Shown in pieces: positions 1,677-45,147 of a stretch of DNA of 64,000 bases. A program made the translations under genes and the position numbers. Positions within the stretch are counted from its first letter, which is position 1. Each line of letters opens with the position of its first letter. The notes under the pieces were generated by a model that was given only the letters and a program-made list of their open reading frames with translations, had not been told where the DNA came from and ran no database searches. Source of the DNA: Bacillota bacterium (GTDB lineage Bacteria; Bacillota; Clostridia; Oscillospirales; CAG-382); the NCBI GenBank assembly GCA_029550965.1, contig JAKPGJ010000054.1, positions 42,181 through 106,180 on the forward strand, written 5' to 3'.

Positions 1677-1757
1677 ATGTTCCGCTGAAACTATTTGCGC
1701 AGAATTGTCCACTATTGCAGTAGAGAACAAAATACTCAGATACCGAAAGGCGAACAC

Positions 1758-10231: not shown

Positions 10232-10232
10232 A

Positions 10233-11249: not shown

Positions 11250-11293
11250 AAAGAATTGCTGCCGGCGAAAACGCCGGAGAAAGGTAGAAGATC

Positions 11294-12286
11294 ATGCTGA
11301 ACACAATTAAAAAATTTACATCGGTAAATTCGGTTTCGGGCAGCGAGGAGAAGCTGCGCGCGCTGATAGAAAAAGAAATCTTACCGTTTGTCGACAGCGT
11401 TCAAACCGACGCGATGGGCAACCTGATCGCCTATAAAAAGGGCGAGAATTCCGAGAAAAAGCTCATGGTCGCCGCCCACATGGACGAGATCGGCTTCGTC
11501 GTCACCTACATCGAGGACAACGGCATTATCCGGGTTTCCAACATCGGGGGAATCCGCCCGATCGCGTCCGCGTATCATCCTGTTGTTTTTGCGAACGGAA
11601 CGATAGGCATTCTCGGCATCGACGCGAACACCAAGCCCGAGGAAATCAAAATCAACAAGCTCTTTGTCGATATCGGCGCCAAGAGCAGGCGCGAAGCGGA
11701 AAAAAAGGTTAAAATCGGCGACATCTGCGCGGTCGCGCCCTCGTTTAAAAAACTCGCCGGCGGACGGTACGCGGCGAAGGCGTTCGACGACCGCATCGGC
11801 TGCGCGGTCGCCGTAGACGCGGCGCGGAACGCGAAGAAAACCGCGATGGACACCTATTATGTCTTTACGGTGCAGGAGGAAGTGGGCCTGCGCGGCTCCA
11901 AGCCTTCAGCTTTCTCGGTCATGCCCGATTACGCCGTCGCGATTGATGTTACAACCGCAGACGCGCCCGGCGAAAAAGGCGTCTCCGTCACGCTCGGCGG
12001 CGGCGCTGCGATTAAAATCAAGGATTCCTCGGTCATCTGCTCCAAAGTGATGGTTGACCGGCTGACCGCGCTCGCGAAAGAGAACAACATCAAACACCAG
12101 TACGAGATTCTGACCGCCGGCGGCACCGACACCGCTTCCATGCAGCTTGCCGGCGCTGGAAGCGTCGCGGGCTGTATCTCCATCCCCACCCGGTATATTC
12201 ACTCGCCGGTTGAGGTTTTAGACATGGCGGACGTCAAGGCCTGCTCGCAACTGCTGACCGCTTTGATCGAAAACGGAATAGAGTAA
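11294..12286 (+). CDS. M42 family metallopeptidase, copy 3
   Basis: 330 aa with the motifs MVAAHMDEIGFVV, KAFDDR and VQEEVGLRG. RBS GGAGAAAGG. Confidence 0.85.
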   Translation: MLNTIKKFTSVNSVSGSEEKLRALIEKEILPFVDSVQTDAMGNLIAYKKGENSEKKLMVAAHMDEIGFVVTYIEDNGIIRVSNIGGIRPIASAYHPVVFANGTIGILGIDANTKPEEIKINKLFVDIGAKSRREAEKKVKIGDICAVAPSFKKLAGGRYAAKAFDDRIGCAVAVDAARNAKKTAMDTYYVFTVQEEVGLRGSKPSAFSVMPDYAVAIDVTTADAPGEKGVSVTLGGGAAIKIKDSSVICSKVMVDRLTALAKENNIKHQYEILTAGGTDTASMQLAGAGSVAGCISIPTRYIHSPVEVLDMADVKACSQLLTALIENGIE

Positions 12287-27914: not shown

Positions 27915-29246
27915 TTATTGATAAGCGCTTAGATTGCTTTCAATTTTCGCGGTAATCCCCAGCTTTTTTAAGCGGGTGAAGAATTTCTGCTCTAATACCG
28001 GTTCTTCGATGTTCCGGATAAAATTGATATACAGCTTGTCGTTGTACGACAAAACGCCGCAGGTGCAGGGCGTCGTTTTCTGCACGCCCAAAATAAAGTC
28101 GAACCGCTCGACGTACGCGCGCATCTCCTCCGGGAGTCTGACCGCGCCGAGATTGGAGAGCGTAATGCAGGCTTTGCGCTCGCCGAACAGGTTGTAGGCG
28201 ATTTTCATCGCGAAATTTTTAATAAAAAGCGGCATTACTTTCAATACCGGGTTCTTCTCCGTTTTTACGTTGGAGGTGATTTTGGTGTTTAGGTTCTTTT
28301 TGGTCAGTTCGTATCCCATTTGGTGGTGAACCGCTTTTAGTATTTCCTCAAAAGAATATTCTCCCATGCGCGGGTCGATCCCCGGCGTGACGTACAGCGC
28401 AAAATTCCGAAGCGTGGCGCTCTCGAAGAAATTGCGCAGGTTGACGGGTATGAGTATTTTAACCGGTTTCTGCTTTTTTCTTACCGGCACGCGCTCGTTT
28501 TGAATCTCCGCGATCGCGGCGATCATCACCGAGGCGAGGAACACGGTCAGGGTCACGCCGTACGATTTCGCTTTCGCCAGCACTTCGCCGACGTCCAAAA
28601 TCCCGCAGGTCAGGTGCAGAAAGCCGTGCTTCTCCCGCGTTCCCGTAAGACGGTACGCGGTTGTTTCTCTGCGGCTGCCGCTGACCTCTCCCTGATATTT
28701 CAAAAAACTGTCCTCCAGTTCTTCGGGCGCCGGCTCCTGCGCGCGGTCCAGCACGCCGTCGATGTTGGAAATGGCCGCGCCGTGCTTCTGGGTGAGGTAC
28801 TCCGCAACCAGCGATTTTAAAAAGACCAGCCCGCCGTTGCCGTCCGTCAGCGCGTGGAAAAACTCGGCCGCGATTCTATTTTCATAATACAGAATACGGA
28901 ACGCGCACTTGCGTATCTGCGGAAAATACATGCCGGCGCAGGGATACGCCACGTCCTTTTTTACTTTCGGCGCCTTGGCTTCCTCCAGATAATACCAGAA
29001 CAAGCCCCGCCGGATTCCGGCGACAATCGACGGAAAGCGCTTCGCCGTCACCGCGAGCGCCGACTGCAGCACTTCCGGATCGACCGGCTCGTTGAGCGTC
29101 GCCGAAACGCGGAAAAGATTGCTCCAGTTTTTGCGCTTTGCCGCCGGATAAATTTTCGCAGCGTTGTCCAGCCGCATCCACCTTGGTCTGTGCTGTTCCA
29201 CTTTGTTTCCACCCTGTTTTATTGTATGCAGCGTTAGTTTTTTCAT
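27915..29246 (-). CDS. Condensation/acyltransferase-superfamily protein with an HxxxDG motif
   Basis: Active-site type motif FHALTDGNGG. The start is ambiguous: ATG 29246 (MKKLTL) lies 7 nt after a -10 box, GTG 29201 lies behind GGTGGA, and the ORF-track start 29276 lies inside the predicted promoter. Confidence 0.7.
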   Translation of the reverse strand: MKKLTLHTIKQGGNKVEQHRPRWMRLDNAAKIYPAAKRKNWSNLFRVSATLNEPVDPEVLQSALAVTAKRFPSIVAGIRRGLFWYYLEEAKAPKVKKDVAYPCAGMYFPQIRKCAFRILYYENRIAAEFFHALTDGNGGLVFLKSLVAEYLTQKHGAAISNIDGVLDRAQEPAPEELEDSFLKYQGEVSGSRRETTAYRLTGTREKHGFLHLTCGILDVGEVLAKAKSYGVTLTVFLASVMIAAIAEIQNERVPVRKKQKPVKILIPVNLRNFFESATLRNFALYVTPGIDPRMGEYSFEEILKAVHHQMGYELTKKNLNTKITSNVKTEKNPVLKVMPLFIKNFAMKIAYNLFGERKACITLSNLGAVRLPEEMRAYVERFDFILGVQKTTPCTCGVLSYNDKLYINFIRNIEEPVLEQKFFTRLKKLGITAKIESNLSAYQ

Positions 29247-29252
29247 ATAAAA

Positions 29253-29281
29253 AATATACCGCAATTGCAATTTCAAGTCAA
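29253..29281 (-). promoter_or_regulatory. Promoter of the acyltransferase / zinc-ribbon gene pair
   Basis: The minus strand reads TTGACT - 17 nt - TATATT. Confidence 0.55.
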
Positions 29282-29360: not shown

Positions 29361-29471
29361 AAAAGTATCTTTCGCTTTTCTGTTTGTATGCGTAGTCGTT
29401 TGCAGGAATACGCTACGGTTGTCCCTCGCAGGTTCAAGGATTATGATACGAATTTCTTATGGGAAAATCCC

Positions 29472-29511
29472 AAAAAAACGTGCAGTAAAACGTTTACTGC
29501 ACATCTTTTTT
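29472..29511. terminator. Bidirectional terminator after the carB fusion gene
   Basis: 10-bp stem gtgcagtaaa/tttactgcac flanked by an A-run and a T-run. Confidence 0.8.
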
Positions 29512-29516
29512 ATTTA

Positions 29517-32500
29517 TTAATATACAATGCTGCCTTCGCAAATAAGGTCGGCGTTGCCGGTGAGCGTGATGGTCTCGTCGGTGTAGTTGACAATCAGGTC
29601 GCCGCCCTTGAGTTTGACCGTAATGTCCTCGCCTTTTTTGCAGAAGCCGTTTTCAACCGCCGCGACCACAGCGGCGCAGGCGCCGGTTCCGCAGGCGAAG
29701 GTCTCGCCGTTACCGCGCTCCCAGACGCGCATTTTTAAAGTGCTCTTGTTGACCACGCGGACAAACTCGGTGTTGACGCGCTCCGGGAAAAGGCTGTTGT
29801 TCTCAAACAGCGGCCCGACCTTTTCGATATCCACCGCGTCCACCCGGTCGCAGAACACGACGCAGTGCGGGTTTCCGACCGACACGCAGGTGATGTTGTA
29901 TTCCTTTCCCCCGATTTGCACCGGGCGGTTGATGACCGCTTCGCCGTTCAGCTTGACCGGTATCTTCTCCGGGTCCAGTTCGGCTTTGCCCATATCGACG
30001 CTGACCGAGCGCACTTTTCCGCTGAAAATATACAGCTTGAGCTTCTTGACGCCGCTCGCGGTTTCGATCGTGATGTTCTCGGAGTTTACATAATGATTGT
30101 CGTACAGATATTTTCCGACGCAGCGGATGCTGTTGCCCGCCATTTTGCCCTCGCTGCCGTCCTTGTTGAAGATGCGCATTTTCGCGTCAGCGATATCGCT
30201 TTTCTCAATCAGCACAATGCCGTCGCCGCCGATGCCGTAATGGCGGTCGCATACCGTAATGGACAGCGACTCGGGGCAGGTGATGGAACCGTCGAAATTC
30301 TCGAAGTAAATATAATCGTTGCCGGTTCCCTGCATCTTCACAAAACGCAGTTTCTCTCTTTCCTTGCGCAGGCGGTTGATGTCCACAAGCTCGGTGTTGC
30401 CCAGGTTAAAGCGGGACGCGATGATGTTCGCGAGCGCGTTCGCGGTGTCCAGCGACGTCAGGCAGGCGACCGATTCTAAAATGCACTTGCGGTGAATCGC
30501 GATGTAGTCGTCCACCGACTGCTTTTCGTTGTCGCCGGTGATGACGATGAAGCGGATGTCGTCGTTCTCGAGCGCGTCGAGGATGTTGTTCTTCTCGCCC
30601 TTCTTGCCCAGCACGCAGACGTCAATGCCCAGCGGAGCGATCGCTTCCGCGGTTCCTTTGGTCGCGTAGATTTTCAGGCCTAAATCATCCAGCTTCTTCG
30701 CGAGTCCTACAATCTCAAACTTGTCCTTATCCGCAACCGAAAGGATAACGCCTTTCCGCTTGTCGGAGTTAAAATCCAAATCAAAGCCGGCGGAAACCAG
30801 CCCTTTGAACAGCGCCTCGTTGAGCGTTCTGCCGATGCCCAGCACCTCGCCGGTCGATTTCATCTCGGGTCCGAGCGCCGAGTTGACGTCGGACAGCTTC
30901 TCGAACGAGAATACCGGCACCTTGACCGCCATATAGGGCGGAACCTTGTAAAGCCCGCTGCCGTAGCCCATTTCGGACAGCTTGCCGCCGGTCATCACCC
31001 TGGTCGCCAAATCGACCATCGGCACGCCGGTCACCTTGCTGATGTAGGGAACCGTTCTGGACGCGCGTGGGTTGACCTCGATGACGTACAGTTCGTTGTG
31101 GCTGATGAGATACTGGATATTGACAAGCCCTTTTGTTCCGAGCGCTTTGGTCAGTTTGACCGAGCAGTCGGTGATCAGCGAGAGCATTTTATCGTTAATG
31201 GATACCGGCGGATACATCGCGATCGAATCGCCGCTGTGCACGCCCGCGCGCTCGATATGCTCCATAATGCCGGGTATGAGCACGTCCTCGCCGTCGGAGA
31301 TGACGTCAACCTCCAGCTCGGTGCCGTTCATATACTTGTCAATCAAAACCGGATTGGTAATGCCCTGCGCAAGGATGATGTTCATATAATGCGTCACTTC
31401 GTCCGGCGTGTAGGCGATCGTCATGTTCTGACCGCCGATGACATAGGACGGACGCAGAAGCACCGGATAGCCGATGTCTTTCGCGGCGGAGAGCGCTTCC
31501 TTTAGCGTGAGCGCGGTATGACCCGCCGGACGCTTGATGTTGAAGGAAGCGAGCAGGTGGTCGAAGCGTTCCCGGTCCTCGGCGATGTCGATTCCCTCGG
31601 CGCTGGTGCCGAATATCTTAATGCCGAGCTTGTCAAGCGGTTTTGCGAGCTTGATGGCCGTCTGTCCGCCGAACGCCACGACGACGCCGACGGGGTTTTC
31701 CGCCTTGATGACCCCCATGACGTCCTCAATGGTCAACGGCTCGAAGTACAGCCTGTCGGAAACGTCAAAGTCGGTCGAGACCGTCTCGGGGTTGTTGTTG
31801 ATAATAATGACTTCATAGCCCAACTTTTTCAAGGTGTAGGCGCAGTGCACCGACGAATAGTCGAACTCGATGCCCTGTCCGATGCGGATCGGACCGGAGC
31901 CGAGCACGATAATCCGCTGTTTTTCGGTGTTGACCGTCGCCCTTGCCTCGCAGTATTCGTCGAACGTGGAATAGAAGTAGGGCGTTTCCGCTTTAAACTC
32001 CGCCGCGCAGGTGTCAACCATTTTGTACGACGGGTACAGCGGGTTCTCGATTTTATGCCCGCTGATGTTCTCAATCGCTTTGTCGGTAAAGCCCAGCTTC
32101 TTGCCCTTTATGTACAGTTCCTGCGTAAACGGCCGGTCCGCGAGTTCCGCTTCGTAGTCGGCAAGGTTTTTGAGTTTATGGATAAAGAAGGGGTCGATTT
32201 TGGTTATCTCATGGATGGTTTCGACCGGCACGCCCTGCTTGAGCGCCTCATAGACCGCGAAAATGCGTAAATCGTCGCAGATTTTAAGCCGCTCGACAAT
32301 GTCAATCCCTTTAAAGGCGGGATAATTCGGGGTGTCCAGCGAAATTTCGCTGCCGCGGATGGCTTTCATAAACGCGGCTTCGAAGCTGTTCGCGATCGCC
32401 ATGGTCTCGCCGGTCGCTTTCATCTGCGTACCCAGCTTGCGGTTGGCGGAAACAAACTTGTCAAACGGCCATTTCGGAATTTTCAGAACCACATAGTCGA

Positions 32501-33548
32501 GCGCCGGCTCGAAGCAGGCGCAGGTTTTGCCGGTAATGTCGTTGCGAATCTCGTCCAGCGTGTATCCGAGCGCGATCTTCGCCGCCACCTTCGCGATCGG
32601 GTAGCCGGACGCTTTGCTGGCGAGCGCGGACGAGCGCGACACGCGCGGGTTTACTTCTATGACCGCGTACTCAAAGCTGTTCGGGTTCAACGCAAACTGG
32701 CAGTTGCAGCCGCCCTCGATGCCCAGCGCCGATATAATGTCCAGCGCGGCGCTGCGCAGCATCTGGTACTCTTTGTCCGAGAGCGTCAGCGCGGGCGCGA
32801 CGACGATGCTGTCGCCGGTATGGATGCCGACCGGGTCGACGTTCTCCATGCTGCAGACGGTGATAACGTTGCCCTTCGAATCGCGCATGACCTCGAACTC
32901 GATTTCCTTCCAGCCGTATATGTATTTTTCAATCAAAACCTGATGAATCGGCGACATCTGCAGTCCGTTGGAAGCGACGGTTAAAAGCTGTTCTTTGCTG
33001 GTGGCGACGCCGCCGCCCGCTCCGCCGAGCGTGAACGCGGGGCGGATAATGACCGGGTAGCCGATTCGGTCGGCGACTTCAACGGCTTCCTCAACCGAAT
33101 AAACGGTCTGCGACGGGATGGTCGGCTGACCGATCGCGGTCATGGTGTCCTTGAACAACTGCCTGTCCTCCGCTTTGTCGATCGCGTCGGCGTTGGTCCC
33201 GATCAGGCGGACGCCGTGCTTTTCAAGAAAGCCCTCTTTCGAGAGCTGCATTGCGATGGTCAGTCCGGTCTGACCGCCGAATCCGGCGAGCAGGCTGTCC
33301 GGCTTTTCCTTTTTGATAATTCTTTTGATGGTTTCGGCGTTGAGCGGCTCAAGATATATCGCGTCCGCGAACGTGTTGTCGGTCATGATGGTTGCCGGGT
33401 TGGAGTTGACCAGCACAACCTCCACGCCCTCGTTTTTCATGACGCGGCAGGCCTGCGTGCCGGCGTAGTCGAACTCCGCCGCCTGACCGATGACGATCGG
33501 TCCGCTGCCAATTATCAGCACTTTCTTGATGTCTTTGTTCTTAGGCAT
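29517..33548 (-). CDS. carB: Carbamoyl-phosphate synthase large subunit fused in frame to a C-terminal DapF-like domain
   Basis: 1343 aa. The first approx 1066 aa are a complete CarB (duplicated ATP-grasp halves and an MGS-like allosteric domain). The last 277 aa are a full diaminopimelate-epimerase fold. The start overlaps the carA stop (ATGCCTAA). Confidence 0.9.
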   Translation of the reverse strand: MPKNKDIKKVLIIGSGPIVIGQAAEFDYAGTQACRVMKNEGVEVVLVNSNPATIMTDNTFADAIYLEPLNAETIKRIIKKEKPDSLLAGFGGQTGLTIAMQLSKEGFLEKHGVRLIGTNADAIDKAEDRQLFKDTMTAIGQPTIPSQTVYSVEEAVEVADRIGYPVIIRPAFTLGGAGGGVATSKEQLLTVASNGLQMSPIHQVLIEKYIYGWKEIEFEVMRDSKGNVITVCSMENVDPVGIHTGDSIVVAPALTLSDKEYQMLRSAALDIISALGIEGGCNCQFALNPNSFEYAVIEVNPRVSRSSALASKASGYPIAKVAAKIALGYTLDEIRNDITGKTCACFEPALDYVVLKIPKWPFDKFVSANRKLGTQMKATGETMAIANSFEAAFMKAIRGSEISLDTPNYPAFKGIDIVERLKICDDLRIFAVYEALKQGVPVETIHEITKIDPFFIHKLKNLADYEAELADRPFTQELYIKGKKLGFTDKAIENISGHKIENPLYPSYKMVDTCAAEFKAETPYFYSTFDEYCEARATVNTEKQRIIVLGSGPIRIGQGIEFDYSSVHCAYTLKKLGYEVIIINNNPETVSTDFDVSDRLYFEPLTIEDVMGVIKAENPVGVVVAFGGQTAIKLAKPLDKLGIKIFGTSAEGIDIAEDRERFDHLLASFNIKRPAGHTALTLKEALSAAKDIGYPVLLRPSYVIGGQNMTIAYTPDEVTHYMNIILAQGITNPVLIDKYMNGTELEVDVISDGEDVLIPGIMEHIERAGVHSGDSIAMYPPVSINDKMLSLITDCSVKLTKALGTKGLVNIQYLISHNELYVIEVNPRASRTVPYISKVTGVPMVDLATRVMTGGKLSEMGYGSGLYKVPPYMAVKVPVFSFEKLSDVNSALGPEMKSTGEVLGIGRTLNEALFKGLVSAGFDLDFNSDKRKGVILSVADKDKFEIVGLAKKLDDLGLKIYATKGTAEAIAPLGIDVCVLGKKGEKNNILDALENDDIRFIVITGDNEKQSVDDYIAIHRKCILESVACLTSLDTANALANIIASRFNLGNTELVDINRLRKEREKLRFVKMQGTGNDYIYFENFDGSITCPESLSITVCDRHYGIGGDGIVLIEKSDIADAKMRIFNKDGSEGKMAGNSIRCVGKYLYDNHYVNSENITIETASGVKKLKLYIFSGKVRSVSVDMGKAELDPEKIPVKLNGEAVINRPVQIGGKEYNITCVSVGNPHCVVFCDRVDAVDIEKVGPLFENNSLFPERVNTEFVRVVNKSTLKMRVWERGNGETFACGTGACAAVVAAVENGFCKKGEDITVKLKGGDLIVNYTDETITLTGNADLICEGSIVY
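29520..30350 (-). other. DapF-like (diaminopimelate epimerase fold) domain of the CarB fusion
   Basis: Motifs: FVKMQGTGNDY, DRHYGIGGDG, FNKDGSEGKMAGNSIRC, VGNPHCV, FPERVN, ERGNGETFACGTGACAA. The first catalytic Cys position is Ala (GCG, 30138-30140). Confidence 0.85.
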
Positions 33549-34644
33549 TGGAAGCGGCTCCTTTCATCAAAGCGATAAATCTGTCAAACAGGAATTCGGT
33601 ATCGTGCGGTCCGCCGCAGGCTTCCGGGTGGAACTGCACGGAGAACGCCTTGTATTTTTCGTAAGTCACACCCTCGCAGGTCTTGTCGTTGGCGTTTATA
33701 AACGACACCGCGCCGACGTTTTTGTCGATGCTGTCGATATCCACCGCATAGCCGTGGTTCTGCGCGGTGATATAGGTTTTGCCGGTTATTAAGTCGGTCG
33801 CCGGCTGGTTCTCGCCCCGGTGACCGTATTTCAGTTTATATGTATCGGCGCCGAAAGCGAGCGCGAGCAGCTGATGCCCCAGACAAATGCCGAAAATGGG
33901 CAGCTTTCCGATTAACTGCCTTAACTGCTCGATGCTGTACGCGTTGTCCTTCGGGTCTCCGGGCCCGTTGGAAAGCATCACGCCGTCAAACCCGCCGTTT
34001 AAAATCTCTTCGGCTTTGCAGTCGTAAGGGAAAACCGTAACGTCGCAGCCGCGCTGATTTAGCTTGCGGACAATGTTCTGCTTCGCGCCGTAATCGATCA
34101 TCGCGACCTTAAATATTCCGCTCTCGGATTTATAGAACCGCTTTTGCTTGCTGCTCGTGTTTTTCACGGCGTCCGCGACACGGTACTTCCGAATCGCTTC
34201 CAGATCGACGGCCGATTTATCCGTGCAAATGCAGGCGTTCATAACGCCCTTCTCCCGGATGATGCTGGTGAGCCGGCGGGTATCGACGCCGTACACGCCC
34301 GGAATCCCCTTCTCCTTTAAAAAGTCGTCAATCGTGCCTTCGCTGCGGAAGTTGGAGGGCGTGTCGCACTTCTCGCGGACGATATACCCGAACGCCGAGA
34401 TGTTTCCGTCGCTGCTCTCCGCATCCTCCCGCATGACGCCGTAGTTGCCGATGAGCGGGAAGGTTTGTATGATAATCTGCCCGTAAAAGCTCGGGTCCGT
34501 CAGGGTCTCGACATAACCGGTCATGCCGGTGGTAAACACCGCCTCGCCGACGACGTCTTTTTCGCAGCCGAACGAATATCCTTCGAACACCTGCCCGTCC
34601 TCGAGTATGACATACGCTTTTTTCTCCTTCAAATTAAATACCAC
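33541..34644 (-). CDS. carA: Carbamoyl-phosphate synthase small (glutaminase) subunit
   Basis: 367 aa with the class-I glutamine amidotransferase triad context (GICLGHQLL, FHPE). Confidence 0.93.
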   Translation of the reverse strand: MVFNLKEKKAYVILEDGQVFEGYSFGCEKDVVGEAVFTTGMTGYVETLTDPSFYGQIIIQTFPLIGNYGVMREDAESSDGNISAFGYIVREKCDTPSNFRSEGTIDDFLKEKGIPGVYGVDTRRLTSIIREKGVMNACICTDKSAVDLEAIRKYRVADAVKNTSSKQKRFYKSESGIFKVAMIDYGAKQNIVRKLNQRGCDVTVFPYDCKAEEILNGGFDGVMLSNGPGDPKDNAYSIEQLRQLIGKLPIFGICLGHQLLALAFGADTYKLKYGHRGENQPATDLITGKTYITAQNHGYAVDIDSIDKNVGAVSFINANDKTCEGVTYEKYKAFSVQFHPEACGGPHDTEFLFDRFIALMKGAASNA

Positions 34645-34665: not shown

Positions 34666-35568
34666 TTATTTCAACAGCCGCACCAGCACTGCCTTTTGCG
34701 CGTGCAGCCTGTTCTCCGCCTGGTCAAAGATTTCGTTCGCGTGCGCTTCGAACACCTCTTTGGTAATCTCCTCGCCCTTGTGCGCGGGCAGGCAGTGCAG
34801 GACCATCGCGTCTTTTTTGGCGACCGCCATGACGCTGTCGTCTATGCAGTAGCCCTTGAACGCTTCGCGGCGTTTTGCCGCCTCGCTCTCCTGCCCCATC
34901 GAAGCCCAGACATCGGTATAGAGCACGTCGGCGTCCTTCGCGGCTTCGAAAACATCCTGCGTGCAGGCAAAGTTTCCGCTCTCGTAAGCCCACTTCATAA
35001 TCTCCGCGTCGGGCTGGTAGTCCTTCGGACAGGCGACGGAAACGCGCATGCCGGTTTTGATGCCGCCGACAATCAAGGAGTTCGCCATATTGTTGCCGTC
35101 GCCGATGAAGCACAGTTTAAGCCCGTTCAACCCGCCTTTATACTCGCGAATGGTCATCAGGTCGGCGAGCACCTGACAGGGATGCTCGTAGTCGGTCAGT
35201 CCGTTGATGATCGGAATCGTGCCGAAGCGCGCCATCTCCTCCACCTCGCGCTGGTCGAAGGTGCGGATCATAATGCCGTCGAGGTAGCGCGACAAAACGC
35301 GGATGGTATCGGCGGTTTCCTCCCCTCTGCCGATCTGGAGATCGTTGGAGGACAGAAACAGCGCCTGCCCGCCGAGCTGGTACATGCCGACTTCAAACGA
35401 AACGCGGGTACGGGTGGAGGCTTTGCGAAAAATCATTCCCAAGGTCTTGCCCTTGAGGTGTTTGTGCTCGATTCCGTTCTTCAGCTCGTATTTTAACTGG
35501 TCCGCAAGATTAAGTATATCCAATATTTCCTGCGAAGTCAAATCAGAAAGTTTTAACAAATGCTTCAT
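34666..35568 (-). CDS. argF: Ornithine carbamoyltransferase
   Basis: 300 aa with the motifs STRTRVSFE, HPCQVLAD, DVWASMG and HCLPA (the OTC-type signature rather than the ATCase one). Confidence 0.9.
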   Translation of the reverse strand: MKHLLKLSDLTSQEILDILNLADQLKYELKNGIEHKHLKGKTLGMIFRKASTRTRVSFEVGMYQLGGQALFLSSNDLQIGRGEETADTIRVLSRYLDGIMIRTFDQREVEEMARFGTIPIINGLTDYEHPCQVLADLMTIREYKGGLNGLKLCFIGDGNNMANSLIVGGIKTGMRVSVACPKDYQPDAEIMKWAYESGNFACTQDVFEAAKDADVLYTDVWASMGQESEAAKRREAFKGYCIDDSVMAVAKKDAMVLHCLPAHKGEEITKEVFEAHANEIFDQAENRLHAQKAVLVRLLK

Positions 35569-36725
35569 TGTTCGATTACCTCCGATAAAATAGCGACGCC
35601 CTTCTTCAAAACGTCAAAGGGGATATTCAGCGCGGGCAGCAGCCGAACCTTATCCTTCGCGGTCAGCACAAGGACGCCTTTCTTGATACATTCGTTCGCC
35701 ACTTCTTTCGGGTCCTTTGCGGTCTTTATGCCGAGCATCAGTCCCATCCCCGCGACTTGGGTCACATTCTTTAAAGCAGAAAGGGTAGTTTTTAAATATT
35801 CGCTTTTTTTGTTTACTTCCGCGAAGAGTTCGTCGGTCAGCCTTTCGATAATGCTGATTGCGCCGGCGGCGCAGATCGGGTTGCCGCCGAAGGTGGAACC
35901 GTGCGTTCCGGGCGCCAAAACCTCCGCGGTTTTCTCGTTAAACAGCGTACAGCCGATCGGAAGCCCGCCGCCCAGTCCTTTCGCGGTCGTGACGATGTCC
36001 GGCTCGATGCCGTAATGCTCGTAGCAGAAGAGTTTTCCGGTTCTGCCGTTACCGGTCTGCACTTCGTCGATGATGAAGAGAATGTCTTTTTCTTTGCACA
36101 TCTTTGCAAGGTTTGCGACATAGTCTTTTTCAAGTACGTTGATGCCGCCCTCGCCCTGTATCAGCTCGATCATCAAAGCGGCGCAGTCGTCGCTCAGCTT
36201 GGATGCGGTGTCTTCGTAATTGTTCGCTTCCGCGTACGCGAATCCTTCGGTGAACGGTCCGAAATGCTTGTGGAAGCCGTCCTGTCCGGTCGCGGAAAGC
36301 GTGGTGATGGTTCTGCCGTGGAAGCTGTTTTTCAGCGTGACGATGCGGCTTCTGCCTTCTCCGTATTTGTCGGCGGAATACTTCCTTGCCGCCTTAATCG
36401 CGCATTCGTTGGCTTCGGCGCCGGAGTTGCTGAAGAAAACCTTTTTAAAATGCGTCCGCGCGCAGAGCAGCCGGGCAAGTCTCGCTTGCGGAAGGCTGTA
36501 ATACAGGTTGCTGGTATGCGCGATTTGTCCAAGCTGCGCCGTAACCGCTTTGATCCATTCCTCGTCGCAGGCGCCGAAGGCGTTCACGGCGATGCCGCTG
36601 CCCAAATCAATGTATTCCTTTCCGTCGATATCGTAAAGCAGGCTTCCCCTGCCGCGCGCAATCGCGACCGGAAACCGCGCGTACGATGGCGCGATATTCT
36701 GACTTAGTTCGTCCAATATGTTCAT
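35565..36725 (-). CDS. argD: Acetylornithine aminotransferase
   Basis: 386 aa class-III aminotransferase (FIIDEVQTGNGRTG, TTAKGLGGG) in an arg operon context. It overlaps argF by 4 nt. Confidence 0.9.
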   Translation of the reverse strand: MNILDELSQNIAPSYARFPVAIARGRGSLLYDIDGKEYIDLGSGIAVNAFGACDEEWIKAVTAQLGQIAHTSNLYYSLPQARLARLLCARTHFKKVFFSNSGAEANECAIKAARKYSADKYGEGRSRIVTLKNSFHGRTITTLSATGQDGFHKHFGPFTEGFAYAEANNYEDTASKLSDDCAALMIELIQGEGGINVLEKDYVANLAKMCKEKDILFIIDEVQTGNGRTGKLFCYEHYGIEPDIVTTAKGLGGGLPIGCTLFNEKTAEVLAPGTHGSTFGGNPICAAGAISIIERLTDELFAEVNKKSEYLKTTLSALKNVTQVAGMGLMLGIKTAKDPKEVANECIKKGVLVLTAKDKVRLLPALNIPFDVLKKGVAILSEVIEQ

Positions 36726-36842: not shown

Positions 36843-37697
36843 CTATATAAACATCGTTCCAATGCCTTCGTCGGTCAGCATTTCGATCAGAATGGAGTGA
36901 GGAACTCTGCCGTCGATGACGAACACCTTTTTCACGCCGCGTCTGACCGCTTCGACGCAGCACTCGACTTTGGGAATCATGCCGCCGGAGATGACGCCGC
37001 TGTTCATCAGCGCAGGCACTTCGTCAACGCGGATAACCCGTATCAGCGAGTTCTCGTCGTCCATGTCGCGCAGAATCCCGCGGATGTCGGTCAACGTAAT
37101 CAGGCTCTCGGCTTTGAGCGCTGCGGCGATGCCCGCGGCGGCGGTGTCGGCGTTGATATTGTAAACGTTGTCCTCGTTGTCATAGCCGACCGACGAAATA
37201 ACCGGGATATACCCTTTGTCCAGCAGGTCGATGATCGGCTGCGTGTTGACTTCGGTTATCTCGCCGACAAATCCCAACCGTTCGTCCAGCTTCTTCGCCT
37301 TTATCATATGCCCGTCGATGCCCGAAAGCCCGATCGCTTTGCCGCCCAGATTCTGAATCAGCCCGACGAGGTTCTTGTTGATTTTTCCGGCAAGCACCAT
37401 CTGCACGATCTCGGCGGTCTCCTTATCGGTGACGCGCAGACCGTCGATGAACTCGGTCTTTTTGTTGATTTTGCTCAGCATTTCGGTGATTTCGGGCCCG
37501 CCTCCGTGCACCAGAACCACCCGCACGCCGATGAGCGAGAGGAGAACCACGTCCCGCATGACGGCTTTTTTTAAGTCCTCGTTAATCATCGCGTTGCCGC
37601 CGTATTTTACGACGACGGTTTTGTTGTAATATTTCTGTATATACGGCAGCGCGCTGTTCAGCACCTCTGCTTTTTGCGCGTTTGTCATGCTGTCCAT
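36843..37697 (-). CDS. argB: Acetylglutamate kinase
   Basis: 284 aa amino-acid kinase fold (VVKYGGNAM, VLVHGGGP) in an arg operon context. Confidence 0.92.
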   Translation of the reverse strand: MDSMTNAQKAEVLNSALPYIQKYYNKTVVVKYGGNAMINEDLKKAVMRDVVLLSLIGVRVVLVHGGGPEITEMLSKINKKTEFIDGLRVTDKETAEIVQMVLAGKINKNLVGLIQNLGGKAIGLSGIDGHMIKAKKLDERLGFVGEITEVNTQPIIDLLDKGYIPVISSVGYDNEDNVYNINADTAAAGIAAALKAESLITLTDIRGILRDMDDENSLIRVIRVDEVPALMNSGVISGGMIPKVECCVEAVRRGVKKVFVIDGRVPHSILIEMLTDEGIGTMFI

Positions 37698-37739: not shown

Positions 37740-38954
37740 TTAAGTCCTGTAATCTCCGTTTATTCTAACATACTCGTAGGTCAAATCGCAACCCCACGCG
37801 ACCGCTTTTTCGCTTCCGGCGTTGAGGTTGACCAAAATGGTGATTTCGTCTTTCAAAAGAATCTCTTTCGCAATTTCCTCCGAGAAGTCAACGCCACAGC
37901 CCTGCCTGCAGACCGCGATTTCGCCCGCCGAGGATTTGAACGATACGTCGATCTTCGTCACGTCCACGTCCGCGCCCGAATAGCCGATGGCGCACAGGAT
38001 TCTTCCCCAGTTCGCGTCCGCGCCGAACATCGCGGCCTTCACCAGCGACGAGCAGATAACGCTCTTTGCCACCTGCTTCGCGGTCGCGCGGTCCGAAGCA
38101 CCCAAGACCGCGCATTCGATCAGCTTGGTCGCGCCCTCGCCGTCCTTCGCGATTTTTCTGCAGAGAACCGTCGTTACCATGGACAGCGCTTTCTTAAAAT
38201 CCTCATACGCTTTCCCTTCGGTTTCAATCGGCGTGTTGCCGGCAAGCCCGTTCGCCAGAATGCAGACCATATCGTTCGTCGAAGTGTCCCCGTCGACGCT
38301 GATCATGTTGAAGCTGTCGTCCGTATCCTCTTTCAGCGCTTTGGCAAGCATTCTTGGCGTTATCGCCGCGTCGGTGGTCAAAAACACCAGCATGGTCGCC
38401 ATGTTAGGGTGTATCATGCCCGAACCTTTCGCGATGCCGCCGATGGTGCAGGTCTTTCCGTCGATCGTGAATCGGACCGCGACCTCCTTTTTGACCGTGT
38501 CGGTGGTCATGATTCCTTCGCAGGCGGCGCCGCTTCCGTTGTAGGAAAGGCTTTCGACCAGCGGACCGATGCCGTTTTTAATCGGCTCGATGTTCAGCGG
38601 CTGACCGATGACGCCGGTGGAAGCGACGATGACGTCGGTGGGCAGGATGCCCAGCTTTTCCGCCGTCAGCCTGCACATCTCCCACGCGACTTCCTTTCCG
38701 TTCGCGTTGCAGGTGTTGGCGTTTCCGCTGTTGCAGATAATCGCGTGCGCGTACGGAATCTCAAGGTTTTTCTGCGTCACCAGCAGCGGCGCGCCCTTGA
38801 CAAGATTTTGCGTATATACCGCGGCCGCGGCCGCTTTTTTCTCGCTGTAAATCAGCGCCAAGTCTTTTTTCTCTTTATTTTTACGGATGCCGCAGTGTAT
38901 GCCGCCGGCTTTAAATCCTTTCGGCGCGCATACGCCGCCTTCGGTAAAATTCAT
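37740..38954 (-). CDS. argJ: Bifunctional ornithine acetyltransferase / N-acetylglutamate synthase
   Basis: 404 aa with the autoproteolytic site context (PNMATMLVFLTTDA). Confidence 0.92.
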   Translation of the reverse strand: MNFTEGGVCAPKGFKAGGIHCGIRKNKEKKDLALIYSEKKAAAAAVYTQNLVKGAPLLVTQKNLEIPYAHAIICNSGNANTCNANGKEVAWEMCRLTAEKLGILPTDVIVASTGVIGQPLNIEPIKNGIGPLVESLSYNGSGAACEGIMTTDTVKKEVAVRFTIDGKTCTIGGIAKGSGMIHPNMATMLVFLTTDAAITPRMLAKALKEDTDDSFNMISVDGDTSTNDMVCILANGLAGNTPIETEGKAYEDFKKALSMVTTVLCRKIAKDGEGATKLIECAVLGASDRATAKQVAKSVICSSLVKAAMFGADANWGRILCAIGYSGADVDVTKIDVSFKSSAGEIAVCRQGCGVDFSEEIAKEILLKDEITILVNLNAGSEKAVAWGCDLTYEYVRINGDYRT

Positions 38955-38978: not shown

Positions 38979-39923
38979 TTATAGCGAAAGCCCTGTCGTT
39001 TCTTCAATACCGAGCATGATGTTCATGCACTGCACCGCCGCGCCCGAAGCGCCTTTTCCGAGGTTGTCGAAGCGCGCCGCGACGAGCGCACGCTCATCGT
39101 TGCCGCAGACAATAATCTGCATGCTGTCCTTTCCCGCCAGCTCGTTGGCGTACAAAAAGCCGCTCTCGGTGCCCTTCTCGTGAAACGGCAGGACGGTTAT
39201 CAGTTTTTCGTCTTTGTAATATTCGCAGAAAAATTCGTGCAGTTCCTTTATGCCGCCGAAGCCGTTCAAATACGAAACATACAGCGGCACGCTGACCACC
39301 ATTCCGCTGTAAAAGTCCGCAACAATCGGGTTGAACAGCGGCTTCTGCTTCAGTCCGCAGACGGCGGTCATTTCCTTTAAATGCTTGTGGTTCGCATTTA
39401 AGGCGTACTGTCCGGGCGAATCCAGACCTTTCGGCCTGTTCTCCGCCGAATAGTCGGCAATCATGCTCTTCCCGCCGCCGCTGTACCCGGTTACCGAGTG
39501 CGCCGCAATCGGATAATCCGCAGGCAGTATTCCTTTTTGCACCAGCGGATAAACGAGAACGCAGAACCCGCTCGCGTGACAGCCGGGAACAGCTACTCGT
39601 TTGCCGTTTCGAACCGCTTCCCGGTGCGCCGGCGAAAGCTCCGGCAGTCCGTATCGCCAGCCCGCTTCGGTTCTGTGCGCGGTGGAAGCGTCTATGATTT
39701 TCGTGTGTTCGTTCTCGCAAAGCCGAACCGCTTCTCTCGCCGCGTCGTCCGGCAGACAGAGAAAGGTGATGTCGGAGGAGTTTATCATCTGTCTTCGCGC
39801 GTCCGTGTCCTTCCGCAGATTTTCCGGCAGCGTCAAAAGGCTGATGTCTTTTCTTTCAGCCAGCCTGTCGGCGATGCGCAGTCCGGTCGTGCCGGCCGAA
39901 CCGTCAATAAACACTTTTGTCAA
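38979..39923 (-). CDS. argC: N-acetyl-gamma-glutamyl-phosphate reductase (short type)
   Basis: 314 aa with the catalytic Cys context (VAVPGCHASG). TTG start behind GAGGAGG. Confidence 0.88.
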   Translation of the reverse strand: MTKVFIDGSAGTTGLRIADRLAERKDISLLTLPENLRKDTDARRQMINSSDITFLCLPDDAAREAVRLCENEHTKIIDASTAHRTEAGWRYGLPELSPAHREAVRNGKRVAVPGCHASGFCVLVYPLVQKGILPADYPIAAHSVTGYSGGGKSMIADYSAENRPKGLDSPGQYALNANHKHLKEMTAVCGLKQKPLFNPIVADFYSGMVVSVPLYVSYLNGFGGIKELHEFFCEYYKDEKLITVLPFHEKGTESGFLYANELAGKDSMQIIVCGNDERALVAARFDNLGKGASGAAVQCMNIMLGIEETTGLSL

Positions 39924-39955
39924 ATGATATTCCTCCTCGCTGTAAGTTTGGTATA

Positions 39956-39983
39956 ATTATACACATAAAATATCTATTGTCAA
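39956..39983 (-). promoter_or_regulatory. Promoter of the arg operon
   Basis: The minus strand reads TTGACA - 16 nt - TATAAT. AT-rich sequence lies upstream. Confidence 0.6.
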
Positions 39984-40007
39984 GTATTTATACAAATATT
40001 TATTTAT

Positions 40008-40025
40008 CAATTTATTATTATGCAT
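40008..40025 (-). promoter_or_regulatory. Weak candidate ARG box (ArgR/AhrC operator)
   Basis: The minus strand reads ATGCATAATAATAAATTG. Against the TGAAT-W4-ATTCA type consensus this is an imperfect match (3 mismatches in the two arms). Position is just upstream of the -35. Confidence 0.25.
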
Positions 40026-40045
40026 TTATTTCCGCGTCTGCTCAC

Positions 40046-40085
40046 ACAAAAACAGCGTTCCCCTTTGCGGGCAGTGCTGTTTTTA
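40046..40085 (-). terminator. Terminator after the ABC permease gene, insulating the arg promoter
   Basis: The minus strand reads AACAGC..CCC-gcaaa-GGG..GCTGTT followed by TTTTTG. Confidence 0.6.
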
Positions 40086-40095
40086 TTCAGTGCTT

Positions 40096-42210
40096 CTAAT
40101 ATTCTTTTGCGTCCATCATATTATCCACTATTATCTTGTTTATTATATCTTCATACGTCAGGTTGGAAAGCTTGAAGTACCCGACAAAATGATCGGCTCC
40201 TTCTATATAAATATCATGAGCGCCGTATCGTATTTCAATATAAATATAGGAGTCGTTCGGCCCTATCCGCTCGTCGACCAGATTGTCAAGCAAGAACGGA
40301 ATCGTTTCATCATTCAAATCAATTCTTACCTGTACGAATGTCCCGTTTGGCTGATTCAAAACAATTTCCGCTGTAACATTATACTTTTTATAATCTTCCG
40401 ATTTCAGCAGCGATAGAATCCTTTCTCGATCGGACCTGCCCGTGTTGTAGGTGTACTCGAAAAACTTTTCATAGCTTTTTGGCGTCAAATTCGGTAAAAT
40501 CGGAACGGAAATATAGATTTCATTGTTATTGATAACCGTACGGTAAGAAATATGCGCCGGCGAATGATAGCTTTTCAATTGGCTCAGCCAAACATCGGCA
40601 TCAACGGACGCCAGTTCGTCTTGTATTGCCTTGAATACTTCATACGCGGCTTTGTCGGTATGCTTTTCATTGCTATAACCAAAAGTTATTGTATTCTTGA
40701 CGGGTTCCGGCAAGGTAAGCGCCCGTTTTTGAAATTCCGGATTAGAAATTAAGGAATCAATGATTATTTTAAAGTCAGCAGACGGGAATACGACTTTTCT
40801 GTAATAAGCGCCGCTTTTTGTACGAATTTTCACGCAAGCGCGGATATATTGCGCCGACGCGAAATCATCGTCAACGATGGAACAGCTCTCATAATTTCGG
40901 GCATTGGAATATTTGTAATAAGTGTCGCTTGCGTTTTTGGATCTTGTAGCCTTCAGAGCGTCCACGTTTTCTTTCAGGTTTTTCGCGACAATTTGCTTTA
41001 CGCGTTCATCCGTCAATTTTATATCTGAACTTTGGTATTTATAGTAGTTTTCCAAACTGAACCTTGGCATTTCTTCCAACTGCAGCGAAACGGAAGTTAT
41101 TTCGTCCGCCGTCGGCGTAAAGTTCAGATGCGCTTGATAGATGCCGAGCATTCCGCAATATATCAAACCGTTCAAAACCGCAACAATCCCCAGCGCCGGA
41201 ACCGCTTTTAACAGGTTCTTCCATTTTTTCGTGGTGATTAGCTCATACAGGAAGTAAACAAAAACTGCTATGAAATAACCGAATATGATTAAGAAAACTT
41301 CATCGCTTTCGAAGGTGCTTACGTCAAGAATGAGACATAAAACGATAATGCAAATCATCATGGTTACCGTGATTCTATAAACCGCCTGCATGATGCGGTT
41401 CGGCGAAGATTGCCCGGCGGTTTCGCTTTTTCTTTTTTTGAACAAACAGCACGCCGCGGCTGCATATGCGAGCGAAAGGACTATTGTATAAATAAACGCG
41501 GCGGGGTCAGCCAAAATGTCGTTAAACCAGTTAAATATACCGAGTGATTCGAAAAGCAGATAAGTTAGAAGATTGTATTTCCCTTCCAGCAGAAAGCCGA
41601 TATGCGTATAGGACATCATGGGTAAAAGCAGCGTGATTTCATATGTAATCATGGCGATGATAAATCTCGGCAGAAACATAATCAAAACCGCAACAATGAT
41701 GCCGTTGATGGTTGTTCCCGTAATGGCGCAGGCAATCGCCGTACAAGCCGCGGCGAGGAAGGCTGCGGCAAGGCAGTTGAGCGTATACATAAGCCAGGAT
41801 GAAAACACTACGGTGAAATGTCCGCTGAAAATCGAATGCAATCCGAACGAAACAAGCGAAGTTGCCGCCGCTATGATAAAAAGCCAGGTGAGAACGGAAG
41901 CATAAAAGCTCAAAAAGACGCATTCGCGCGTATAAGGCATCGCGTGGTAAAAATCTGCCGTGTTCCGTTTGTTCAGAAAGCCGAACAGATACAGCGTCAA
42001 GATGAAGGCGACAATACATAATCCGAGTAATACCGGATGCATATCCATGCCGGTAACGATTTCGATCGAATACCCTCTGTCTATGACTTCCGTAAGCGGA
42101 ACCGCAACCGCCGCTATCATAAAAATGACAAAGAAAACGATACCGGGGGTTTTTAACTGTTTTATCCCCTCGCGGTACAAGCCGAAATCGAACAGTTTTC
42201 TGTTTTTCAT
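40096..42210 (-). CDS. ABC-2-type permease-like membrane protein with a large C-terminal non-membrane domain
   Basis: About 704 aa. The first approx 370 aa contain many TM segments and the last approx 330 aa are soluble. ATG at 42210 lies behind GAGGTG (alternative GTG at 42219). The gene is visibly AT-richer than its neighbours. Confidence 0.7.
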   Translation of the reverse strand: MKNRKLFDFGLYREGIKQLKTPGIVFFVIFMIAAVAVPLTEVIDRGYSIEIVTGMDMHPVLLGLCIVAFILTLYLFGFLNKRNTADFYHAMPYTRECVFLSFYASVLTWLFIIAAATSLVSFGLHSIFSGHFTVVFSSWLMYTLNCLAAAFLAAACTAIACAITGTTINGIIVAVLIMFLPRFIIAMITYEITLLLPMMSYTHIGFLLEGKYNLLTYLLFESLGIFNWFNDILADPAAFIYTIVLSLAYAAAACCLFKKRKSETAGQSSPNRIMQAVYRITVTMMICIIVLCLILDVSTFESDEVFLIIFGYFIAVFVYFLYELITTKKWKNLLKAVPALGIVAVLNGLIYCGMLGIYQAHLNFTPTADEITSVSLQLEEMPRFSLENYYKYQSSDIKLTDERVKQIVAKNLKENVDALKATRSKNASDTYYKYSNARNYESCSIVDDDFASAQYIRACVKIRTKSGAYYRKVVFPSADFKIIIDSLISNPEFQKRALTLPEPVKNTITFGYSNEKHTDKAAYEVFKAIQDELASVDADVWLSQLKSYHSPAHISYRTVINNNEIYISVPILPNLTPKSYEKFFEYTYNTGRSDRERILSLLKSEDYKKYNVTAEIVLNQPNGTFVQVRIDLNDETIPFLLDNLVDERIGPNDSYIYIEIRYGAHDIYIEGADHFVGYFKLSNLTYEDIINKIIVDNMMDAKEY

Positions 42211-42222
42211 CTCCGTCACCTC

Positions 42223-43932: not shown

Positions 43933-45147
43933 ATGAGCGAAATGATCAACAACCGCGAATACCGCCAAAAGGTTTTAAAAGAGTTAATCACACAGCTGCA
44001 CCAGGGAAAAAGCGTTGAGGAAGTTAAAAAACAGTTTGAAAAACTCTTCTCCGGCGTTTCGGCAAGCGAGATTGCCGAAATGGAGCAGGCGCTCATTATG
44101 GAGGGCATGCCGGTAGAGCAGATTCAAAAACTGTGCGACGTGCACGCGGCTGTATTTAAAGGCTCGATTGAAGAAATCCATCGTCCGCAAAAGCCCGAAG
44201 AGACTCCCGGTCATCCGGTGCATACCTTCAGGCTGGAAAACAAAGCGATCGAAACGTTCATCAACCAAAACGTAAAACCGCACGCGGAGGAGTTTTTGAC
44301 TTCCGGCTCGGCGGACAGCGTACAGGCGTTGCTTGCGGATATCGAAAAGCTGGAAGAAGTGGACAAGCACTACCTGAGAAAAGAAAACCTGATCTTCCCC
44401 TATATGGAGAAGTACGGCATTACCGCGCCGCCGAAAGTAATGTGGGGCGTTGACGACGAAATCAGAGCCGCAATCAAAGAAGCAAAAGACCTTTTATCCG
44501 GCAGTCTGGAAAGCCGAGAGCAGGCGTATGAAAAGGTCAAAGAAGCGACGGATAAGATTCTTGACATGATTTTCAAAGAAGAAAACATCATGTTCCCGAT
44601 GATACTCGAAACGCTCACCGAAGACGAATGGGCTGCGATTGCGGAAGCGAGCGACGAGTTCGGCTACACGCTCGTTCAGCCGAAAGGCAAATACCGGCCG
44701 AATCAGTCCAGCGCAGGCGCCGAACAGCCGCAGGCGCAAAAGGACGCCGTTCATTTCGACGCCGGCTTCTTAACGCCCGAGGAACTCAACGCCATGCTCA
44801 ACATGCTCCCGTTCGACATTACCTTTGTGGACAAAAACGACGAAGTGAAATACTTCACGCAAGGAAAAGAGCGCATCTTCGCGCGGCCGAAAACGGTTAT
44901 CGGCAGAAAAGTCACCAACTGCCATCCGCCCGCGAGCGTGCATATCGTTGAGCAGATTGTTGCGGACTTTAAGTCGGGCAAAAAGGACCACGAGGATTTT
45001 TGGATCAAAATGGGCGACAAATATGTGCTGATCCGCTATTTCGCCGTGCGGAATGAAAAAGGCGACTACCTCGGCACGATGGAAGTAACGCAGGACATCA
45101 AGCCCATTCAGGCAATCACCGGCGAAAAGCGGCTGGTATCGGAATAA
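43933..45147 (+). CDS. DUF438 / hemerythrin-like / PAS-domain protein
   Basis: 404 aa. The N-terminal DUF438-type region and hemerythrin-like helices are followed by a C-terminal PAS-like region (FVDKNDEVKYF...NCHP). Confidence 0.7.
   Translation: MSEMINNREYRQKVLKELITQLHQGKSVEEVKKQFEKLFSGVSASEIAEMEQALIMEGMPVEQIQKLCDVHAAVFKGSIEEIHRPQKPEETPGHPVHTFRLENKAIETFINQNVKPHAEEFLTSGSADSVQALLADIEKLEEVDKHYLRKENLIFPYMEKYGITAPPKVMWGVDDEIRAAIKEAKDLLSGSLESREQAYEKVKEATDKILDMIFKEENIMFPMILETLTEDEWAAIAEASDEFGYTLVQPKGKYRPNQSSAGAEQPQAQKDAVHFDAGFLTPEELNAMLNMLPFDITFVDKNDEVKYFTQGKERIFARPKTVIGRKVTNCHPPASVHIVEQIVADFKSGKKDHEDFWIKMGDKYVLIRYFAVRNEKGDYLGTMEVTQDIKPIQAITGEKRLVSE

Follow-up and report, generated by a model that had tools for sequence, protein, structure and literature searches.

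The 64,000-nucleotide stretch analysed here (positions 42,181 to 106,180 of contig JAKPGJ010000054.1, assembly GCA_029550965.1, from an Oscillospirales member of the Bacillota; the window) carries on its minus strand, at 29517..33548, a single gene in which the large subunit of carbamoyl-phosphate synthase (CPSase), CarB, continues into a domain derived from diaminopimelate (DAP) epimerase, DapF. This fusion, carB~dapF', is the last gene of an arginine operon. Its DapF-derived domain retains Cys217 and has Ala in place of the other catalytic cysteine, Cys73. Relatives of the gene fall into two clades, and only the arg-operon clade, clade II, to which the window gene belongs, has lost Cys73 as a group. 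The best explanation, with a probability of roughly 0.45, is that the clade II domain is a non-epimerising, DapF-derived ligand-binding or allosteric module of an arginine-dedicated CPSase. This reading is built on direct observations: the architecture, the residue states and conservation across the clade, the gene neighbourhood, and the drifting nucleotide-binding site of CarB.

The fusion gene and its product

The open reading frame (ORF) encodes 1343 amino acids plus a stop codon, with no stop and no change of frame between the end of CarB and the DapF-like part. Pfam domains in the protein are CPSase_L_D1 (two), D2 (two), D3 and MGS, then two DAP_epimerase matches (PF01678) reaching residue 1334. 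Residues 1–1045 (30414..33548) are the CarB part, with two ATP-grasp halves, the oligomerisation domain and the MGS allosteric domain. This part is an above-cutoff member of the NCBIfam CarB family PRK05294 (NF003671; residues 1–1045, 1463 bits against a cutoff of 599), and TIGR01369 scores 1421 bits against 1027. The MGS-like allosteric domain lies at residues 945–1031 (30456..30716; PF02142, 53 bits). A conserved linker, ...NTELVDINRLRKEREK, residues 1046–1067 (30348..30413), leads into the DapF-derived domain, residues 1068–1343 (29520..30347). DapF model TIGR00652 matches residues 1068–1341 with 282 bits in the full protein and 287 bits for the domain alone (cutoff 115). These features are all on the minus strand. 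A sequence-only reading had proposed both the fusion and its domain borders, and the hidden Markov model scans with Pfam and NCBIfam support it on both counts. The bifunctional DapF/glutamate racemase model of the Chlamydia type (NF038284) gives the window protein 120 bits, below its cutoff of 350, and the Pfam scan found no match to the proline-racemase family (PF05544). The CarB part has the same full domain set as E. coli CarB (PDB 1a9x, 1bxr), from which the window protein differs by the extra 277-aa domain after the allosteric domain.

An AlphaFold (AF2) model covering residues 895–1343 is a confident two-domain model, with a predicted local distance difference test score (pLDDT) of 88 and a predicted template-modelling score (pTM) of 0.82. 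The best Foldseek match to its DapF part is 9mro (root-mean-square deviation 1.9 Å, template-modelling score 0.92), with 3ejx at 2.2 Å. The structures nearest to the model are closed, ligand-bound DapFs.

The catalytic residues, in Haemophilus DapF numbering, were located by alignment to the solved DapFs of B. anthracis (2otn), a cyanobacterium (9mro) and Arabidopsis (3ejx). The window motif GKMAGNSIRC aligns with GKSCGNGLRC of B. anthracis, which places Ala at position 73 (residue 1137, codon GCG, 30138..30140, minus strand) and Ser at position 76, where Gly is expected (residue 1140, 30129..30131, minus strand). The motif ACGTG is identical to that of the solved DapFs and contains the retained Cys217 (residue 1286, codon TGC, 29691..29693, minus strand). 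Position 211 (residue 1280, 29709..29711, minus strand) is Asn, a residue shared by all clade II members, whereas clade I has Ser there. The DAP-binding residues N11, N64, N157, H159, N190, E208 and R209 are all present. The sequence-only reading had named the loss of Cys73 to Ala, the change of the GNG motif to GNS and the retention of Cys217, with exactly these codons, and each is confirmed; relatives in the same clade have Ala or Gly at position 73, not Cys.

It is scarcely conceivable that a sequencing or assembly error produced the fusion or the Ala codon, or that the DapF part is translated separately. The Ala codon, GCG, differs from the Cys codons TGC and TGT at three of three positions, and the identical 1343-aa protein is found in several independent assemblies of metagenome-assembled genomes (MAGs; HOJ47428.1, HOK68337.1 and HPP85247.1). 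The cluster members of this identical protein lie on 7, 6, 25 and 1 contigs, and their records are named carbamoyl-phosphate synthase large subunit only. Ala73 is therefore not a sequencing error, and the identical protein, with approximately 69 uninterrupted orthologous ORFs, also excludes a strain-specific one. Separate translation is contradicted by the junction itself. The loci compared come from a survey of one genome per GTDB species, with at least 576 matching stretches, of which the best 80 loci were kept; junction indels and segment identities were taken from 69 full-length proteins. These share the pattern ...NTELVDINxMR(6)LxFxKMxGxGNDY with zero indels, including in the linker. The codon at the onetime DapF start is a non-start Leu codon (CTN or TTA) in 74 of the 80 loci, no promoter was found near the junction on the gene strand, and there is no conserved ribosome-binding site. 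The sequence-only reading had set out a stop or frameshift at the junction, or separate translation of the DapF part, as grounds for abandoning the fusion, and the window ORF offers neither.

The evidence in favour of an artefact comes from interrupted MAG copies, which have in-frame stops at conserved sense positions (L001:9941, TAG for Lys; L085:1350, TAG for Tyr/Phe; L009, TAA and TGA at 21 and 813). Such stops account for the many database entries of 449 or 501 aa described as MGS plus DapF, or as 'diaminopimelate epimerase, partial'. Recoding of TAG was considered because two of the stops are TAG; it is rejected since the stop codons are mixed (L009 has TAA and TGA) and do not fall at the same sites. 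The individual copies more probably carry sporadic nonsense mutations or errors of assembly.

The fusion is widespread. A homologue search with the last 317 residues of the window protein, which span the junction, gave 8000 matches, and the best 120 all cross the junction at 63–85% identity. The output of the protein-collection search consists of fragments, none of approximately 1340 aa, and the window protein itself is unlisted although it is in the collection; long proteins are thus under-represented in it. The stretches found in the genome survey are mostly from uncultured Oscillospirales-type Clostridia, and the best 80 loci are from records labelled Oscillospiraceae, Acutalibacteraceae, Ruminococcaceae, 'Eubacterium', Borkfalkia and Saccharofermentans. 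Cultured strains account for two of the 80, Ruminococcus bromii ATCC 27255 and Ruminococcoides intestinale. An uninterrupted ORF is present in approximately 69 of the 80 loci, these being the ones with enough upstream DNA, at 1320–1557 aa and nearly all at 1335–1430 aa. Public names for the proteins are CarB or 'diaminopimelate epimerase, partial'. Literature searches found no paper describing a CarB-DapF architecture, a single-cysteine DapF or a DapF pseudoenzyme. The sequence-only reading likewise knew of no described CarB-DapF architecture. The architecture is neither rare nor confined to a strain, given the number of matching stretches and the presence of the fusion in cultured R. bromii.

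Two clades of the fusion

Across the window and 82 loci, position 73 is Ala in 54, Gly in 15, Cys in 13 and Ser in 1, and position 211 is Asn in 69 and Ser in 14, with near-perfect covariation between the two. Neighbour-joining trees built separately for the CarB part and the DapF part agree on the same deep split into clades I and II. The two clades share 69% identity in CarB and 58% in DapF, and the indel-free junction is the same in both. As judged from these comparisons, the fusion is ancient and of common origin in the two clades.

Clade I, which includes R. bromii ATCC 27255, Ruminococcoides intestinale and Clostridium sp. CAG:964, keeps Cys73, Gly76, Ser211 and Cys217 and lies in clusters of the order ANTAR-carA-fusion-(pyrG)-dapL. 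In the Cys73/Gly76/Ser211 loci (13 of 13) carA adjoins the fusion wherever upstream DNA is present, pyrG and/or dapL are often there, and arg genes never are. The gene order in R. bromii ATCC 27255 is carA, carB~dapF, pyrG and dapL (TIGR03542, 512 bits), with a response-regulator/ANTAR gene upstream. A published table for R. bromii L2-63 lists DapF as peg.124 and DapL as peg.126, no Ddh and no DapF2, with the arg genes at pegs 1593–1600, and gives the gene as DapF with no comment on a fusion (Ashniev et al. 2022, Table S2B, PMC9026213). The ATCC 27255 gene order is consistent with this table, and the fusion is then the only DapF tabulated for R. bromii. Because both cysteines are kept, dapL is nearby and no other DapF is tabulated for R. 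bromii, the clade I fusion is predicted to be a working bifunctional enzyme, its domain a normal two-cysteine DAP epimerase. Clade I would be the older of the two sister clades.

Most clade II (Asn211) loci lie after argJ..argD-argF(-carA). The clade has dapL near none of its members and, among the 80 loci kept, is found in uncultured lineages only. In the Gly73 subgroup carB~dapF' directly follows argF. No full carA is present within 10 kb in 14 of 51 clade II loci (L018, L035, L042, L044, L046, L050, L052, L053, L059, L060, L063, L065, L066 and L074), against 0 of 11 clade I loci. This implies that the glutaminase subunit or car locus is elsewhere in those genomes, or that the glutaminase is dispensable. 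At one of these loci, from an Evtepia sp. MAG, a 146-aa CarA upstream of the clade II fusion (L063:6484-6924) has the CPSase_sm_chain interaction domain only and no glutaminase domain, and this system may be an ammonia-dependent CPSase. The same locus was considered as a clade II copy at a DAP locus and rejected, as its order is glmS, nadE, glnA, truncated carA, fusion and terminator, with no pyrG or dapL.

Two clade I members depart from the general pattern. P0130 (L083/L084, Oscillospiraceae MAG GCA_050950425.1) has Asn211 with Cys73 and Cys217 still present, in a bare carA-fusion locus. L076, from a Eubacteriales MAG, has Asn211 together with Ser73 and Ala217, and so keeps the domain after the loss of both cysteines. 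Since these two belong to clade I, Asn211 must have arisen at least twice, linked to cysteine loss, and L076 suggests that catalysis is dispensable for retention of the domain.

For free DapFs, the comparison used the whole DapF family clustered at 50% identity, from which the 150 nearest representatives were taken. Almost all of the free DapFs have both cysteines, with Ser, Ala, Val or Thr at position 211, and the entries without Cys73 are essentially all fragments of the present fusion. Two apparent stand-alone Ala73 DapFs were rejected on inspection, P0125 because it is cut at a contig end and P0132/L085 because of an in-frame TAG within a fused gene. The closest free canonical DapF, P0287, is in the context glnA-ANTAR-dapF-pyrG-nadE-aminotransferase (L086–L091, e.g. 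L089:9402-14402). This context matches the clade I locus ANTAR-carA-carB~dapF-pyrG-dapL in synteny, except that carAB is absent. Such a locus probably marks the site where the fusion formed, or where it was later undone. Some relatives of P0287 are from Oscillospiraceae and Butyricicoccus records. A separate, real DapF in clade II genomes is plausible, because free canonical dapF genes exist in relatives and the clade II loci without carA imply another car locus. No second dapF was found by tblastn in the window or in any locus flank, and no second carB was found in the flanks.

Other DapF arrangements were encountered in this comparison. P0231 (687 aa) joins a DapL-like class I/II aminotransferase to a canonical DapF. 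P0199 (610 aa) has CPSase_L_D1, MGS and a degenerate DapF with Ala73 and Tyr217, and P0211 (687 aa) is a DapF fusion whose N-terminal half has no family assignment. In a few stand-alone DapFs one of the catalytic positions is Ser, either 73 (P0255) or 217 (P0183 and P0256).

Role of the clade II domain

Residue conservation in clade II was measured in 163 sequences defined by the presence of Asn211 and the absence of Cys73. Position 73 is Ala in 142, Gly in 19 and Ser in 2. Position 76 varies (Ser 84, Cys 34, Ala 26, Asn 10, Gly 4, Pro 2), and there is therefore no conserved replacement base. N64, G74, H159, N190, E208, R209, G218 and T219 are present in 163 of 163, and N75 (162), C217 (162) and N157 (159) are near-invariant. 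N11 is Asn in 87 and Asp in 76. Of the 15 tabulated catalytic and ligand positions, 12 are at least 97% conserved, a level reached by 24% of the columns of the domain as a whole. Four of 275 columns in the domain discriminate the clades: C73A, S211N and two conservative exchanges (I/V and M/L). At matched CarB identity the clade II domain is only 1–4 points less identical than the clade I domain, and its conservation is 0.65 against 0.56 for the MGS domain. By these measures the constraint on the clade II domain is not relaxed.

The CarB side of the protein shows change of a different kind. The ligands of the uridine or inosine monophosphate phosphate group in E. coli, K954, T974, T977 and K993, are K, T, T and K in the window and are conserved in 11 of 11 clade I proteins. 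Clade II drifts at two of them, with R, K, L or I at 954 and K, G, a gap or S at 993. No segment differs more between the clades than the MGS domain, where identity is 41%. In the window, Val and Cys occupy the positions of the E. coli ornithine ligands E892 and Y1040. Because of the nucleotide-ligand drift, the MGS divergence and the location of carAB~dapF' with arg genes, clade II appears to be an arginine-dedicated CPSase no longer under the control of pyrimidine nucleotides.

On the preferred reading, an ancient CarB~DapF fusion would have passed its DapF-derived C-terminus on to the CPSase large subunit of the arg operon. Clade II would then have lost the general base Cys73, replaced by Ala, Gly or rarely Ser, and gained Asn211. 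The domain would still fold and still bind DAP or a very close analogue, normal two-base epimerisation would no longer be possible, and the domain would be kept as a built-in part of the CPSase with a ligand-binding, allosteric or structural role, joined to MGS by a rigid linker of invariant length. Taken further, it may be a DAP-sensing switch that replaces nucleotide control of the arginine-specific enzyme. Koo, Blanchard and co-workers are said to have established that Cys73 and Cys217 are both required general bases in DapF. We infer the loss of epimerase activity because Cys73 mutants are known to be inactive; the identity of the ligand and any effect on CPSase are inferred too. The sequence-only reading had suggested a ligand-sensing or regulatory module, and this fits with the retained DAP-binding residues, the unrelaxed constraint and the drift of the nucleotide-effector ligands.

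The same conservation can be read differently. The clade II domain may still be catalytic on DAP or a DAP-like substrate by a one-cysteine mechanism; this is the main alternative, though somewhat unlikely. Variants of this are an epimerase using Cys217 with either a water positioned by Asn211 in the cavity left by Ala or Gly at position 73 or some other proton relay, and a one-base exchange or elimination. Cys217, His159, Glu208, Arg209 and all of the Asn ligands are essentially 100% conserved, and constraint is not relaxed relative to the catalytic clade I domain. Asn211 is fixed in clade II, at a site where canonical DapFs vary between Ser, Ala, Val and Thr; Asn is however unable to serve as a general base. 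Nor can Ala or Gly, found at position 73 in 161 of 163, transfer a proton, and position 76 offers no conserved substitute. The TIGR00652 score is far over its cutoff and the AF2 model superposes best on closed, ligand-bound DapFs, but the published enzymology requires both cysteines, and structures of the C73S and C217S mutants are deposited (PDB 2q9h and 2q9j). Sporadic stand-alone DapFs with one Ser (P0255, P0183, P0256) do exist. L076, on the other hand, retains the domain with neither cysteine, and dapL, which often adjoins clade I, never adjoins clade II. The strongest form of this alternative, a one-cysteine DAP epimerase as the only DapF in many uncultured gut Clostridia, is unlikely. 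It has a possible lead in E. siraeum, which is recorded with a 'DapL route with missing DapF' and no Ddh (Ashniev 2022, PMC9026213). No DapF peg adjoins ArgF in the tables of that study, which cover cultured Oscillospirales only and so have no bearing on clade II, found among the 80 loci kept only in uncultured lineages.

The domain could also be a purely structural relic that binds no ligand and is needed for CarB folding, stability or oligomerisation. DapF is dimeric and could bridge the CarB allosteric domains. The indel-free linker and the confident two-domain model suggest that packing may be fixed, L076 keeps the domain after losing both cysteines, positions 73 and 76 tolerate several small amino acids, and N11 is replaced by Asp in nearly half of clade II. 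The pocket of a relic should however drift, yet the catalytic and ligand positions are conserved far above the domain background and the domain evolves as slowly as its catalytic version. A relic is therefore quite unlikely.

Several points weigh against a non-epimerising regulatory module. The invariance of Cys217, His159 and Glu208 exceeds the apparent needs of simple ligand binding and hints at retained chemistry. There is no evident physiological reason for DAP to control an arginine-specific CPSase. Ligand binding and loss of activity are both predictions. Among the best 80 loci, 13 genomes have the clade I form, and a clade II locus was seen in none of them; a genome may therefore carry one form or the other instead of both as paralogues. 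The E. siraeum record is a lead only; if that organism carries a clade II fusion, this would speak for the domain as the working epimerase.

Known systems offer partial parallels. The window domain shares with canonical DapF (H. influenzae, E. coli, B. anthracis) the two-repeat fold, the DAP-binding residues and Cys217, and differs by Ala73, Ser76, Asn211, the covalent link to CarB and the absence of DAP or lysine genes nearby. In the dehydratases of the proline-racemase family, such as trans-3-hydroxy-L-proline dehydratase with its Cys/Thr pair, loss of one cysteine changes the function, and the substrate carries a leaving group. The fold likeness of these enzymes to the window domain is distant (Foldseek 6r76, 4k7g). 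Their Cys is replaced by Thr or Ser, whereas the window domain is of the Ala/Gly type with an unchanged DAP pocket and no PF05544 match, so the analogy with a dehydratase drawn in the sequence-only reading has no support. Mammalian CPS1 contains a dead glutaminase-like domain, its catalytic Cys replaced, that is kept as a structural or allosteric part; this is an N-terminal glutaminase homologue, in another lineage and with another effector. E. coli DapF binds and activates RppH (PMC6061791), a precedent for a DapF fold that regulates another enzyme by direct contact. That DapF, however, is free, fully active and acts in trans, whereas the window domain is fused in cis and is without Cys73. 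The CarB-DapF architecture with the clade-wide loss of Cys73 appears to be a new combination, both parts of which are from known families.

The arginine operon and wider relevance

All of the operon genes are on the minus strand. A promoter of perfect consensus, TTGACA and TATAAT with a spacer of approximately 16 nt, was read from the sequence upstream of argC at 39956..39983, within AT-rich repeats (window 39940-40060). It is followed by argC (38979..39923; TIGR01851, 391 bits, cutoff 230), argJ (37740..38954; TIGR00120, 489 bits, cutoff 298), argB (36843..37697; TIGR00761, 267 bits, cutoff 151), argD (35565..36725; TIGR00707, 437 bits, cutoff 410), argF for ornithine carbamoyltransferase (34666..35568; NF001986, 437 bits; TIGR00658, 421 bits) and carA for the glutaminase subunit (33541..34644; NF009475, 461 bits). 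An intrinsic terminator, GTGCAGTAAA-CG-TTTACTGCAC followed by a T-run, is located at 29470..29502 and begins 15 nt past the TAA stop of the fusion. The six upstream genes all pass their NCBIfam cutoffs and the terminator follows the stop, which agrees with the earlier proposal that the fusion closes argCJBDF-carAB. Because carA begins only 22 nt past the end of argF and has an 8-nt overlap with the start of carB, carAB~dapF' is most likely cotranscribed with the arg genes. No E. coli-type ARG box was found upstream of argC at up to 2 mismatches, and the 64-kb window contains neither dap nor lys genes.

The window has four large ORFs with no match in the family libraries searched (6-1637, 543 aa; 1695-3386, 563 aa; 27915-29276, 453 aa; 40096-42219, 707 aa), two of which flank the arg operon. 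Three tandem M42 glutamyl aminopeptidase paralogues (9194-12286) lie downstream of a MurD-like ligase (7811-9178). A DUF438-hemerythrin-PAS protein is encoded at 43933-45147 and may sense oxygen, iron or NO.

CarB and DapF, both familiar from textbooks, are candidate antibiotic targets, and their fusion occurs widely in one of the major orders of gut bacteria. R. bromii is a keystone starch degrader whose only tabulated DapF is this apparently undescribed fusion. Since the records are named CarB or partial diaminopimelate epimerase, pathway reconstructions may miss a real DapF in clade I or wrongly credit one in clade II. The arg-operon clade is a natural, deeply conserved 'C73A' DapF with an active site otherwise untouched. 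It poses the question of whether a two-base racemase can work with one base, or else of how a dead enzyme domain comes to be recruited as a metabolite sensor for CPSase. If true, a one-cysteine epimerase would overturn the strict two-thiol requirement of this class of enzyme.

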